64,000 bases of DNA from Myxococcota bacterium (GTDB lineage Bacteria; Myxococcota; XYA12-FULL-58-9; JALHOP01): contig JBGGMJ010000182.1 of assembly GCA_041288095.1 (NCBI GenBank), forward strand, positions 861 through 64,860, written 5' to 3'. How positions within the stretch are numbered: position 1 is the first letter of the stretch; every line of letters starts with the position of its first letter. Under the pieces are notes generated by a model that saw only the letters and a list, made by a program, of their open reading frames with translations, was not told where the DNA came from and ran no database searches. Of this stretch, positions 50,571 to 58,046 are shown piece by piece. Made by a program: the position numbers and the translations under genes.

Positions 50571-50593
50571 GAACGAAAAGGCTCGGAATCGAA

Positions 50594-50634
50594 GGCCCGC
50601 TGACGGTACGCCGTTGGCGGGCTTTTTTCGTTTT
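50594..50634 (+). terminator. rho-independent terminator immediately after rplK
   Basis: GGCCCGCTGACGG-TAC-GCCGTTGGCGGGC hairpin (with G-U pairs) followed by TTTTTTCGTTTT. It starts 24 nt after the rplK stop. Confidence 0.65.
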
Positions 50635-50668
50635 GCCCTGGCTGGACGAGCCGGCGGATAAGGCGCCT

Positions 50669-51559
50669 ATGCGAAGCGCTCGCTCATTGCTCACGACCGC
50701 GATCCTGGCCGCTCTGACGTGGGTCGGTGTTGCTTGCGCGACGCGCGATGACGAGCCCGTCGAAGCGCACCCCGAGGCCGCGGCACCGGCGCCTTCGCCG
50801 ATCGTACCGCCCGCGGGCGCGATCGATCCAGCGCCCGAGCCGGCGACTCCACCTCCGGAGGACGACGACTCGCCGACCCTCGTCGCGTACCCACCCCCGC
50901 GAATCGAGAACGTCGTTGTACGCCGAAGCGGTCAGGAGGTGCGTCTCGTCGCGCGCGTGAGCCGCGTCCGTGGCGCCAGCAGGTACGATCTGCAGGTGGC
51001 GAAGACCCTCATGTTCGAGCCACTTCTCGCGGAGGGCTCCACGTCGGGGCGCTCTGTGAACGTCGGACCGCTCCCGCCGGGGATGTTCTTCGTCCACGCG
51101 CGGGCCGTCGGGGCTGCTGGTGAAGGACCCTTCGGCGATGTGCGCGTCGTTCACGCTCACAAGGGCGGTCTCGCGAAGCTACGGCCGGTGACCGAGGAAG
51201 ACGCGGCAGAGCCGATGCTCGCTGGGCTCCCCCCGGAGAAGACCGCCGGGGCGACGCCCGCCGCGAGTGCCGTGCTCATCGCGACGCCCGAGGCCAAGCC
51301 GAACCTCGCCCGCTTGGGTCCGCTACGCCAGCGCTACGAGCAGCTGCAGCGCGAGCTCGCCGAGGTCGAAGGGCTACGACGCGAAGTCGAGGCCAAGGTC
51401 GCGGAGCTGCGAGGACGCCTGGCGGGTGCCAAGGCGAAGAGCGCGGCGACGCTCCAGGGTGACCTCGAGGTCCTCGAGGCGACCCGCACGCAGCTCGATC
51501 GCGAGATTACCGCTGGCCTCGCCGAGCTCGACCGCATGCTGGCTGCTTCGACGCCCTGA
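50669..51559 (+). CDS. hypothetical lipoprotein with a Pro-rich linker, an Ig/FN3-like middle and a C-terminal coiled coil
   Basis: The ATG at 50669 gives MRSARSLLTTAILAALTWVGVAC (lipobox). There is a Pro/Ala-rich stretch. The C-terminus has heptad-like LRQRYEQLQRELAEVEGLRREVEAKVAELRGRL. The track ORF starts at TTG 50633. Confidence 0.5.
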   Translation: MRSARSLLTTAILAALTWVGVACATRDDEPVEAHPEAAAPAPSPIVPPAGAIDPAPEPATPPPEDDDSPTLVAYPPPRIENVVVRRSGQEVRLVARVSRVRGASRYDLQVAKTLMFEPLLAEGSTSGRSVNVGPLPPGMFFVHARAVGAAGEGPFGDVRVVHAHKGGLAKLRPVTEEDAAEPMLAGLPPEKTAGATPAASAVLIATPEAKPNLARLGPLRQRYEQLQRELAEVEGLRREVEAKVAELRGRLAGAKAKSAATLQGDLEVLEATRTQLDREITAGLAELDRMLAASTP

Positions 51560-51621
51560 TCCGACGCGGTGTCAGGTCCAGACCGGACAACGGGCTCGAT
51601 GGTCAGGCCGATACTCGCATC

Positions 51622-56233: not shown

Positions 56234-56273
56234 AGCCCCTCCTGGCCAAAAGCGTAGGCCAGGAGGGGCTTTC
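56234..56273 (+). terminator. perfect 14-bp stem-loop downstream of the TSP3 gene (probable terminator)
   Basis: AGCCCCTCCTGGCC (56234-56247), a 9-nt loop, then GGCCAGGAGGGGCT (56257-56270), followed by TTC. The U-tract is short, so termination efficiency is uncertain. Confidence 0.5.
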
Positions 56274-56355
56274 GAGCAGGCCGCGAAAAGTTGAGCTGAA
56301 CTTGGCGGCCCGAGCGACACTCAATGTCGTGGCCGTCCTACGCGATCAGAAGAGC

Positions 56356-56958
56356 ATGAACAGGTCCGACTCTTCGACAGTGCGGCCGGTGGCGCTCATG
56401 ACGGCGGTCCGCAACGGCGAGCCCGGCGCGGCGGCGATGCTCTTCGATGGGCTCGCGCCTCGCATCCGACGGCTCCTGCGGCGCGCCTGCGGAGCCACCC
56501 ATGACCTCGACGATCTCGTCCAGGATTGCTTCCTCAAGCTGTGGAAGAGCATCGGCCGCCTAAAGGACCCCGAGCGGCTCGACGGCTTCGTGTACGCGAT
56601 CGCGGTCCACACGGCGCGCTCGGCGCTACGCAAGCGCTACGTTCGGCGTATCCTCAGGATCGACACCGCGGTAGTCGAAGAGGTCGGCGATGCGTATTCG
56701 GGCACCGTCGAGCAGCGCGAGAGAGCGCGAGTCGGGGCGGCGGTCTTGGACGGTTTGAGCCCGGAGCTCCGCCTCGCTTTCGTTTTGAGGCACGTCGAGG
56801 AGCTCGATCTCCAAGAGGGAGCCGAGGCATTGGGAGTCTCGTTGTCGACGTTCAAGCGGCGCGTCGCCGCGGCGGAGCGGCGGGTCGATGTTTTGATGCG
56901 GCGCGCGTCACCATTACCGACATCGGTGACGCAGTGGTCGGGGGGAGAAGGGGTATGA
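56356..56958 (+). CDS. ECF (group 4) RNA polymerase sigma factor
   Basis: Start ATG at 56356. Region 2: DLVQDCFLKLWKSIGRLKDPERLDGFVYAIAVHTARSALRKR. Region 4 HTH: LSPELRLAFVLRHVEELDLQEGAEALGVSLSTFKRRV. Confidence 0.8.
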   Translation: MNRSDSSTVRPVALMTAVRNGEPGAAAMLFDGLAPRIRRLLRRACGATHDLDDLVQDCFLKLWKSIGRLKDPERLDGFVYAIAVHTARSALRKRYVRRILRIDTAVVEEVGDAYSGTVEQRERARVGAAVLDGLSPELRLAFVLRHVEELDLQEGAEALGVSLSTFKRRVAAAERRVDVLMRRASPLPTSVTQWSGGEGV

Positions 56959-57917
56959 GGGCGTCGCAAAAAATAGAAGAGCTCGGGGAGGCGTTGCGAG
57001 AAGCGACTCGCGAAGACGTCTCCCAGCATCACCATCTGCTTCAACGCAGCCGCTTCCTGCACGCCATCGATGGCGCACGCCGTCCGCGATCGCGGTTCCT
57101 GGTCGTCGGGCTTGCCGCGAGCCTGGCCCTGACGCTCGCCGTGTTGGGCTTCGTCGGCCGCAAGCACACCCTCGACTTCTCGAGCCAGACCGACGCGGCC
57201 ACCGGCGGCACCCGCTGGAGCTTCTCCGATGGCAGCGAGGTCGACCTCGCCCCCGGAGCCGCGGCGAAGGTCGTGTTGTTGCAGGATGGCGGCGCTCGGA
57301 TCGATCTGGCTCGCGGCCACCTCGACGTCTACGTCAATCCCAAGCGTCACGCGCGCTGGGAAGTCCTCGCCGGCTCGCACACGGTCACGGTGACCGGCAC
57401 CCGTTTCCTGGTCGAGCGCGGTCAGGGCACCGAGGTTACGGTCCAGGTAAACGAAGGGCGCGTGCTGGTGCGCGACCCGTCGATGACCGAGCCGGTCGTC
57501 CTCGATGAGCCGGGCGAGCGCTACACGACGGTCCCGGCCCCCCGGCCGGCGCCCCCCCATCCGACGGCACGTCGTGAGCCCGAGCCGCCGCGTTCCCTCG
57601 ACCCGCCGCGCTCCTTCGAGGAGGAGCTGCTCGACGCCGAGCGCGCGCGCCTGAGCGGTGAGCGCAAGCTCGCCGAGAAGCTCTTGCTGAACCTGCGCAG
57701 CCGCCATGGCACGGGCGCCAAAGGGGCCCAAGTGGCCTACCGCCTGGGCCGCTTGCTCGAGTACGAGCACCCCCAGAAGGCGGCGGCTTGGTACGCCGCG
57801 GTGTTCAAGGAACAGCCTGACGGTCCGCTGGCGCGCGATGCCGCGAACGCCATCGTCGACAAGTTTCCCGAGTCCTCACAGGCTGCCGCGGCCAAGCGGT
57901 TTCTGGCGGCGCACTGA
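56955..57917 (+). CDS. FecR-like transmembrane anti-sigma factor
   Basis: Its ATG at 56955 overlaps the sigma stop (ATGA). It has a single TM helix (FLVVGLAASLALTLAVLGFVG). The periplasmic FecR-like segment is WSFSDGSEVDLAPGAAAKVV...VLAGSHTVTVTGTRFLVER...VQVNEGRVLV. The C-terminus is helical. Confidence 0.7.
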   Translation: MRASQKIEELGEALREATREDVSQHHHLLQRSRFLHAIDGARRPRSRFLVVGLAASLALTLAVLGFVGRKHTLDFSSQTDAATGGTRWSFSDGSEVDLAPGAAAKVVLLQDGGARIDLARGHLDVYVNPKRHARWEVLAGSHTVTVTGTRFLVERGQGTEVTVQVNEGRVLVRDPSMTEPVVLDEPGERYTTVPAPRPAPPHPTARREPEPPRSLDPPRSFEEELLDAERARLSGERKLAEKLLLNLRSRHGTGAKGAQVAYRLGRLLEYEHPQKAAAWYAAVFKEQPDGPLARDAANAIVDKFPESSQAAAAKRFLAAH

Positions 57918-58046
57918 GGGTTTAGGGGCTGCTTGCACGAACACCCTTGACAAGTCGGCAGCCCACCGGCATTACGGCGCGCTCGAAATAGCAGGAGACC
58001 AAGTAGGCCTTCGGGTCGAACAGTCGCTAGTCACTGCGGAGGATTT
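57918..58046 (+). promoter_or_regulatory. 129-nt leader upstream of rplA with a candidate promoter and a UUCG-capped hairpin
   Basis: TTGACA at 57947-57952, a 17-nt spacer and a weak -10 (CATTAC, 57970-57975). GGCC-TTCG-GGTC hairpin at 58006-58017. RBS GGAGG at 58036-58040. Confidence 0.3.

Follow-up and report, generated by a model that had tools for sequence, protein, structure and literature searches.

How can a bacterial lineage pull apart rplK and rplA, the genes for ribosomal proteins L11 and L1, and what happens to the space between them once it has done so? The rplK-rplA pair is among the most stable bacterial gene pairs. The question is raised by a 64,000-nucleotide (nt) stretch of a Myxococcota metagenome-assembled genome (MAG; GenBank assembly GCA_041288095.1, contig JBGGMJ010000182.1, positions 861 to 64,860; hereafter the window), in which rplK and rplA are separated by 7476 nt (50571-58046) that carry six genes, all on the plus strand. 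An earlier reading made from the sequence alone (hereafter the sequence-only reading) took this interval for an old, domesticated interruption and held that rplA must have acquired its own promoter and leader. Having compared the locus with its counterparts in related genomes, we think it quite likely that the history was a different one: a clade-specific break of the operon at two points, with rplA behind an ancestral leader and a promoter of its own, and with a variable slot between rplK and rplA that took up its cargo stepwise. None of this calls for a novel type of molecular system.

The split is confined to one clade

Gene identities, assigned with Pfam and the listing of open reading frames (ORFs), and tRNAs, assigned with ARAGORN, place the split within the following arrangement.

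47053-47081, plus strand: promoter-like site of the sigma-70 type (TTGACT-N17-TATAAG, from reading the sequence) ahead of the tRNA-tuf-secE-nusG-rplK block
47676-48878, plus strand: tuf
48945-49020: tRNA-Trp (ARAGORN)
49084-49470, plus strand: secE
49490-50095, plus strand: nusG
50127-50570, plus strand: rplK (L11), the final gene of the upstream block (Pfam Ribosomal_L11_N and Ribosomal_L11)
50591-50636, plus strand: intrinsic terminator after rplK, the left edge of the slot (16-bp stem at 50591-50626, then a T-run)
57947-57975, plus strand: rplA promoter-like element, the right edge of the slot (-35 TTGACA, 17-nt spacer, -10 CATTAC)
57991-58037, plus strand: putative L1-type autoregulatory hairpin (P1 GCAG/CUGC, a GA bulge and an extended P2)
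58047-58754, plus strand: rplA (L1; Pfam)
58786-59310, plus strand: rplJ (Pfam)
59374-59784, plus strand: rplL (Pfam)

Much of what the sequence-only reading had described at this level stands. Its interruption of about 7.4 kb by six genes agrees with the measured gap and the ORFs, its tuf-tRNA-Trp-secE-nusG-rplK block is recovered by Pfam and ARAGORN (with tRNA-Thr/Tyr/Gly/Thr upstream of tuf), and its strong terminator, placed at 50594-50634, has the stem and T-run listed above and folds at -28.3 kcal/mol (z -3.8). Downstream of the gap, rplA-rplJ-rplL (58047-59784, plus strand) are spaced by 31 and 63 nt.

A genome scan with NusG was followed up for its 80 best matches. Among those having both genes, only locus L002 (MAG GCA_022842935.1; NusG 99% identical to that of the window) shows a large rplK-rplA gap, the rest having 9-230 nt between the two genes. 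Several clade members fell outside these 80 matches, and the remaining ones were found by an L1 protein search followed by genomic context look-ups. The split is common to at least six related assemblies with L1 at least 86% identical, and L11 of the clade members is 94.6-98.6% identical to the product of the window's rplK. Both flanks are seen in the window, L002, L090, L091/L092 and L093, and where both ends are known the gap measures about 2.5-7.5 kb.

Window: gap of 7476 nt; a putative lipoprotein, the tandem orphan paralogues parA and parB, the surface-protein gene mtsC, an extracytoplasmic function (ECF) sigma factor and a FecR-type anti-sigma
L002 (L1 98%): gap of 5622 nt; lipoprotein, mtsC, ECF, FecR and about 1.2 kb of unknown sequence
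L090, GCA_964484195.1 (L1 98%): gap of 4997 nt; a 132-amino-acid (aa) ORF, lipoprotein, an M61 peptidase with a PDZ domain and, on the opposite strand, a pyridoxal phosphate (PLP)-dependent decarboxylase
L091/L092 (L1 96%): gap of 4453 nt; a 913-aa orphan on the opposite strand and a par-like gene
L093 (L1 86%): gap of 2528 nt; a 183-aa orphan, an ArsR-type helix-turn-helix protein, AHSA1 and DoxX
L101 (L1 90%), a short contig ending before rplK: a different ORF upstream of rplA, with the conserved promoter and leader present

An all-against-all BLASTP comparison of the cargo reveals limited overlap: the lipoprotein occurs in three genomes, and mtsC-ECF-FecR and the par family occur in two each.

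Comparison across Myxococcota, which the sequence-only reading had proposed, shows the split to be clade-restricted, relatives with L1 no more than 82% identical keeping the pair adjacent. In the nearest outgroups, with L1 identities of 82%, 79% (L097) and 75% (L099), rplK and rplA lie 60-120 nt apart, and L099 has the standard order tuf-rpmG-secE-nusG-rplKAJL-rpoB. The pair is also adjacent in L003, L005-L007 and about 65 further genomes. A rplK|rplA break occurs in no other lineage of the approximately 75 sampled, and literature searches found no report of one in bacteria. Within this sample and these searches, the split is unusual for bacteria, in which reported breaks lie between rplKA and rplJL, as in Bradyrhizobium diazoefficiens and Actinomyces israelii (bioRxiv 10.1101/2025.04.14.645983).

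Among clade members, the conserved blocks are 83-94% identical at the DNA level, which makes the break older than the species level yet confined to the clade. The claim of an old interruption is upheld in this respect, with identity reaching down to about 83% across the clade. The claim of one domesticated insert is not, since the cargo differs between genomes whose L1 proteins are 96-98% identical.

The slot has sharp edges and a promoter-like element on its right

Breakpoints were located by blastn of the window against L002, L090, L091 and L093. On the left, homology to L091 and L093 stops at the rplK stop codon, while that to L090 extends past the terminator to 50627. On the right, it restarts at 57923, 57937 and 57946, the first of these some 25 nt before a perfect -35 and the last at the hexamer itself, and in L093 at 57981; overall, the slot can be taken to end about 10-25 nt ahead of the -35. 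The -35 is part of a promoter-like element, TTGACA-N17-CATTA(C/G), that is kept in six lineages (window, L002, L090, L091/L092, L093 and L101) and is preceded in each by unrelated sequence. From this conservation we infer a dedicated rplA promoter at 57947-57975. The promoter-like site ahead of the tRNA-tuf block, conserved in L002, is of the same type and points to the kind of promoter that the organism uses for its translation genes. In L093 (4100-4176) and L101 (290-315), an insertion of 20-30 nt with TTCGATTAG-like repeats sits between the rplA promoter and the leader.

The left edge carries a relic in two genomes. In L091 (5548-5690) and L093 (1703-1830), the final 30 nt of rplK recur as a relic 87-134 nt beyond the true stop codon, and after this relic come the GAATCGAAG and terminator that in the window and L090 adjoin the stop directly. 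The stretch between the true stop and the relic holds two hairpins. Such a relic could be the footprint of an integrative element, or it could reflect homology-facilitated illegitimate recombination with a donor rplK.

A putative L1 leader predates the split

The putative L1 hairpin of the window abuts a Shine-Dalgarno sequence (GGAGG, 58038-58042) that is followed by the rplA ATG at 58047, and a hairpin occupies the same position in five other clade members. Relatives with a rplK-rplA spacer of at least 60 nt have a spacer hairpin with the order P1-GA-P2 hairpin-7-nt linker-P1', then GGAGG and the start codon. We built a covariance model (R1) from 36 aligned relatives, leaving out the split clade. 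In this alignment, 96% of cells are paired, a share that falls to 30-50% when the partners are shifted by 1-3 columns, and in five of the six P2 pairs both partners show changes. P1 belonged to the rule by which sequences were selected, which leaves P2 as the sole independent evidence.

Across both strands of the 64-kb window, R1 has a sole match, at 57988-58046 (16.8 bits, E 0.025), and none upstream of rplK. In L002 its top match (16644-16702, 15.3 bits) likewise lies directly before rplA. In L009, where rplK and rplA are 25 nt apart, the match is found before rplK instead. The G-rich 5' strand of the window leader reads GCAGGAG and its purine-rich 3' linker reads GCUAGUCA. Since the hairpin already lies between rplK and rplA in outgroups with adjacent genes, the predicted leader was not acquired by the split clade: it is ancestral and predates the split. 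Of the two gains that the sequence-only reading required of rplA, these results support the promoter, through the conserved promoter-like element, and speak against the leader, which outgroups share and which R1 recognises in the window.

By eye, the E. coli 23S rRNA sequence GGUGGGAGGC...GCCGACCUUGAAAUACCACC resembles the relatives' consensus GUGGGAGC...GCGCUUGAACCAC. R1 gives no match at the L1 stalk of E. coli 23S rRNA, so the case for rRNA mimicry rests on this comparison by eye; the window itself contains no 23S rRNA. An Rfam scan of 44-64 kb with E values up to 1 returned tRNAs and chance matches only, with no L1 or L10 leader family.

The sequence-only reading had also presumed that L1 regulates a bicistronic rplKA message. 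This is the E. coli case. The L1-interacting RNA precedes rplK in Proteobacteria, while in Cyanobacteria, Actinobacteria and Chloroflexi it precedes rplA; in Methanococcus, rplK is located elsewhere and rplA-rplJ-rplL carry an L1 site before rplA (PMC3616713). As the relatives studied here are of the type with an L1 site before rplA, the split need not have rewired the feedback.

A proposed two-point break of the ribosomal protein cluster

We propose that in the ancestor of the clade a secE-nusG-rplK-rplA-rplJ-rplL-rpoB cluster broke at rplK|rplA and at rplL|rpoB. The former break would have been tolerable because the L1 operator already stood directly before rplA. L1 would have controlled rplA, and probably rplJ and rplL, and never rplK, and to uncouple the genes, a terminator behind rplK and a promoter ahead of the operator would have sufficed. 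On this proposal, rplK would now close the upstream transcript at its terminator, rplA-rplJ-rplL would be transcribed from their own sigma-70-type promoter at 57947-57975, and L1 would repress translation at the 57991-58037 hairpin abutting the Shine-Dalgarno sequence. The space from terminator to promoter would then be a permissive slot in which ordinary chromosomal genes could be inserted, duplicated, deleted and exchanged, and this turnover would leave each species with a different cargo. The gene content, the distribution among relatives, the edges of the slot and the relics are observed directly in the sequences; the transcription starts, the binding of L1 and the succession of events are deduced from them.

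The second break had been overlooked in the sequence-only reading: rpoB no longer follows rplL in the window. A tblastn search with RpoB of L005 gave no match in the window or L002, while rpoB follows rplL in more than 60 other loci. All clade members lack rpoB after rplL. Where it would be expected, the window has three orphan genes without family matches.

59957-60610, minus strand: orphan gene
60636-62408, minus strand: orphan gene
62398-63519, minus strand: orphan gene

These orphans are kept after rplL in L090, L091, L092 and L093, with argG coming next in L090, L092 and L093.

The cluster also varies at other points among the fetched loci. No rplK is found within 2.3 kb after nusG in L004 (1-4067; NusG 89%), nusG and rplK are 3.5 kb apart in L041, and rplA and rplJ are 4.8 and 2.6 kb apart in L009 and L060. 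L097 has small ORFs, one of them CdiI_2-like, before rplK in place of nusG. In the window, the interval 48879-49083 holds tRNA-Trp between tuf and secE and lacks rpmG (L33), the order in outgroup L099 being tuf-rpmG-secE.

The cargo of the window bears traces of stepwise assembly

The gap of the window contains the following features.

50669-51559, plus strand: cargo gene 1, putative lipoprotein with a C-terminal coiled coil (signal peptide and Cys in the translation; weak ATG16 match)
51622-53346, plus strand: cargo gene 2, parA, a clade-restricted orphan with no family match
53358-54671, plus strand: cargo gene 3, parB, a tandem paralogue of parA with a truncated, altered C-terminus
54650-54701, plus strand: decayed duplicate comprising the rplA promoter and the initial bases of the leader, 79% identical to 57935-57987
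54746-54773, plus strand: motif TTGAGC-N17-GCGAC, putative ECF-dependent promoter, 36 nt before the mtsC start
54809-56188, plus strand: cargo gene 4, mtsC-type surface protein with TSP3 repeats and MYXO-CTERM (NF047638; TSP_3 3e-42)
56231-56274, plus strand: strong hairpin after mtsC, likely a terminator (-38.7 kcal/mol, z -5.05), conserved in L002
56291-56318, plus strand: second copy of the motif TTGAGC-N17-GCGAC, 38 nt before the ECF start
56356-56958, plus strand: cargo gene 5, ECF sigma factor (Sigma70_r2, Sigma70_r4_2, Sigma70_ECF; TIGR02937)
56955-57917, plus strand: cargo gene 6, FecR-type anti-sigma (Pfam FecR 2e-11), overlapping the sigma gene by 4 nt

ORFs and Pfam agree with the gene types named in the sequence-only reading (lipoprotein, paralogues, TSP3/MYXO-CTERM protein, ECF sigma factor and FecR-like anti-sigma).

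The relic promoter right after parB is one trace of stepwise assembly. Its local alignment to the rplA promoter scores 26.5 against a background of 8.2 +/- 1.35 (1266 chunks); no such copies were found in the cargo of other clade genomes. In L091/L092, a gene 30% identical to parB lies directly upstream of the rplA promoter and has its stop codon inside the -35. With a relic after parB in the window and a par gene still abutting the promoter in L091, the most economical account has par originally lying against the rplA promoter. We considered whether the parB stop and the stop of the L091 par gene are orthologous and dropped this idea, as the reading frames differ by one.

For the window we therefore favour the following order only as a proposal: a lipoprotein gene would have come to lie beside rplK, an orphan next to the rplA promoter would have been duplicated to give parA and parB, and mtsC-ECF-FecR would later have entered between parB and rplA, duplicating the promoter, the upstream copy of which would since have decayed. 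Homologues of the lipoprotein lie beside rplK only in L090 (72%) and L002 (60%).

parA and parB are 54% identical and contain the DNA repeat families D2-D10. They have no match in Pfam, NCBIfam or PADLOC, and among 1.84 billion proteins the family has five representatives, all in this clade. An AlphaFold2 model, built on a three-sequence alignment, consists entirely of helices and is poor, with a predicted local distance difference test (pLDDT) score of 59.7. A related arrangement occurs away from the ribosomal cluster in the L002 MAG: at L082 (GCA_022842935.1, JALHOP010000007.1, 1-21452), hrcA-grpE and dnaK are about 8.7 kb apart, and the interval holds a FecR protein, an ECF sigma factor, two small ORFs, a tandem par pair and a HepT/MNT toxin-antitoxin. 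This is a second conserved neighbourhood interrupted by similar cargo, and par genes adjoin ECF/FecR modules twice.

The mtsC gene matches the NCBIfam equivalog NF047638 with 404.8 bits (cut-off 350). Its product has TSP_3 in five stretches, and its translation ends in GGCAS-hydrophobic-RTRRG. MtsC has been reported to have a role in cohesion and S-motility (PMC11980579, PMC12475490). In relatives L086, L088 and L089, mtsC stands in the order tpiA-pgk-aldehyde dehydrogenase / 734-aa protein / TPR protein / mtsC / 716-aa protein / VWA protein / 895-aa protein. None of these neighbours from the ancestral mts cluster is present in the window. L089 belongs to the same MAG as outgroup locus L003, and L086 to the same MAG as clade member L090. 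The window mtsC so appears to be a relocated native gene, and less likely a duplicated one. Alignment of mtsC upstream regions from the new and the ancestral context revealed nothing in common, and a metagenome scan with MtsC yielded two short loci with no useful context.

What mtsC does share, it shares with its new neighbour. The motif [G/T]TGAGC-N17-GCGAC lies 36-38 nt before the mtsC and ECF starts in both the window and L002 (L002 12263-12290 and 13852-13879). Derived from these same upstream sequences, it has six matches in the 2.63 Mb of fetched DNA and none before mtsC in the ancestral context. The sigma factor has regions 2 and 4 only. The ECF start codon, ATG at 56356, is conserved in L002, where the FecR-type anti-sigma is 60% identical. 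Judging from these motifs, mtsC and the ECF operon probably form a small, self-contained surface-signalling regulon unrelated to the ribosome. The hairpin after mtsC gives 30 bits with the Rfam family DUF3800-VIII, below the gathering score of 40.2, and this is probably a chance match to a terminator.

Weighing alternative explanations

Several observations weigh against the favoured history of a two-point break with a variable slot. The R1 score of the window leader, 16.8 bits, is modest, and shuffled versions of the leader fold about as stably as the leader itself (z about 0). Within the split clade, covariation is seen at one pair only, the others being invariant. P2 has been remodelled and extended in the clade to about 30 nt, with an ambiguous inner fold for which the minimum free energy structure and the model alignment differ. 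The -10 of the rplA promoter-like element, CATTAC, is weak (3/6), and a generic promoter scan gave no match there, its rule for the last -10 base also rejecting the tRNA-tuf site. There is no terminator in the 29 nt between the FecR stop codon and the rplA -35, which makes read-through from the cargo possible. The sharing of cargo also misfits the similarity of the flanks: flank identity is 93.8% between the window and L090 and 91.4% between the window and L002, yet mtsC-ECF-FecR is common to the window and L002. The order of cargo events is uncertain for this reason, both loss in L090 and exchange by flank recombination being possible. All source genomes are MAGs or short contigs, with none closed.

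That the pair is truly adjacent and the split an artefact of assembly or binning, the refutation that the sequence-only reading itself had named, is extremely improbable. The source is a MAG, and the separate ENA contig L001 has low coverage (3.6x). In this contig, FecR-rplA-rplJ-rplL and the genes beyond are nonetheless 100% identical to the window, which reproduces the right junction independently. Both junctions recur with other cargo and the same edges in five further assemblies of different projects (NCBI, Logan), and a conserved promoter-like element sits exactly at the junction. Together, the identity of L001 and the recurrence of the split make an assembly error unlikely.

A single old insertion of all six genes, after which rplA gained a new promoter and leader, would fit a split that is clade-wide, the lack of mobility genes and the conserved promoter-like element. 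We consider it quite improbable and already at odds with the genome comparison, as the cargo turns over among genomes with L1 identities of 96-98% and only the lipoprotein, mtsC-ECF-FecR and the par family recur in more than one of them; the cargo must stem from two or more events, as its relic promoter shows, and the leader is already present in outgroups with adjacent genes. Functional coupling fares little better and is in our view improbable. Transcripts from ECF-FecR, or from rplK, would here read into rplAJL so that envelope signalling modulates L1, L10 and L12, or the cargo would profit from transcription of the ribosomal operon. All six cargo genes indeed point the same way as rplA, as does its upstream neighbour in L091 and L093, and the terminator-free 29 nt noted above speak for the idea as well. 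Against it stand the strong terminator after rplK, the strong hairpin after mtsC and the promoter-adjacent gene of L090, which is on the opposite strand. The cargo, moreover, changes from genome to genome, which speaks against coupling under selection.

The slot might instead be the attachment site of site-specific integrative elements aimed at the rplK 3' end, which would bring cargo in and take it away and would by now have left decayed remnants, an explanation that we regard as unlikely. The 30-nt rplK relics of L091 and L093, each followed by a terminator of the window type, and the turnover of cargo at a fixed position are what such an element would leave. The repeat encloses only about 100 nt, however, with the cargo outside it, and it is not found in the window. 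As the sequence-only reading had noted, no mobile element is visible: Pfam, NCBIfam and PADLOC reveal no integrase, transposase or recombinase domain in the window cargo, and no direct repeats flank the gap. Nor was a recombinase found in the cargo of L002, L090, L091 or L093, or any mobility or defence gene in the slot. The cargo (mtsC, par) is native to the clade, and its G+C content of 0.67 overall (0.62-0.68) is like that of the window bulk (0.65-0.69), in agreement with the flank-like composition claimed before; the ribosomal protein genes are lower, at 0.57-0.63.

A bolder version, to which we also give only a slim chance, takes the rplK|rplA gap for a hotspot of cargo exchange between species, driven by recombination anchored in the highly conserved ribosomal flanks or by an undiscovered element using the rplK 3' end, with its cargo exposed to ribosomal-operon read-through or to ECF read-through into rplAJL. 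It is hinted at by the relics in L091 and L093 and by a cargo distribution that is incongruent with the flanks. If it were true, surface signalling would be linked to the synthesis of L1 and of the stalk proteins L10 and L12.

Implications for operon evolution

The clade offers a natural experiment in operon evolution and ribosomal protein feedback, one that bears on when a conserved pair can be broken. The break would be tolerated where the L1 operator already lies before rplA and L11 was never under L1 control. The two-point break with a variable slot predicts a transcription start near 57980, binding of L1 to 57988-58046 and a balance of L11 and L1 that is kept without co-transcription. It also suggests that a gap opened inside a core operon can act as a small flexible locus without a mobile element. 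For annotation and phylogenomic pipelines that rely on rplK-rplA synteny, the clade is a reason for caution.

Comparison with known systems

The closest likeness to the layout of the window is the archaeal L1-L10-L12 operon of Methanococcus vannielii, in which rplK likewise stands apart and rplA-rplJ-rplL form a unit with an L1 site before rplA (PMC3616713). Here the organism is a bacterium whose close relatives keep the pair adjacent, and rplK lies only 2.5-7.5 kb upstream. The layout of the window arose secondarily and is convergent with the archaeal one.

With the bacterial L1 leaders that precede rplA (Cyanobacteria, Actinobacteria, Chloroflexi and, as a second site, Firmicutes), the window leader shares a stem/bulge/stem at the ribosome-binding site and a GGAG-type 5' strand (PMC3616713). 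In those phyla the leader lies inside a co-transcribed rplK-rplA spacer, whereas here it appears to stand behind a separate promoter. The clade's P2 of about 30 nt, its 5' strand of GCAGGAG as opposed to GUGGGAG and the absence of an Rfam match set it further apart. The E. coli L11 operon (rplKA) is built from the same gene pair and relies on the same regulator. Its operator lies before rplK and its translation is coupled, whereas the window has no such operator upstream of rplK and the two genes probably belong to separate units.

Known breaks of rplKAJL-rpoBC are also lineage-specific interruptions of a widely conserved cluster (bioRxiv 10.1101/2025.04.14.645983), but the present one falls between rplK and rplA and is accompanied by loss of the rpoB linkage and by cargo turnover. 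In its fixed position, sharp edges, species-specific content and conserved flanks, which could serve as recombination anchors, the slot resembles flexible genomic islets. It differs from them in its small size (2.5-7.5 kb), its lack of mobility and defence genes and its clade-native cargo. The surface protein, finally, resembles Myxococcus MtsC (MXAN_1334) in its equivalog match, its TSP3 repeats and its C-terminal sorting tag; unlike that gene, mtsC of the window lies outside an mts-type cluster and adjoins an ECF/FecR pair, with which it has a promoter-like motif in common.

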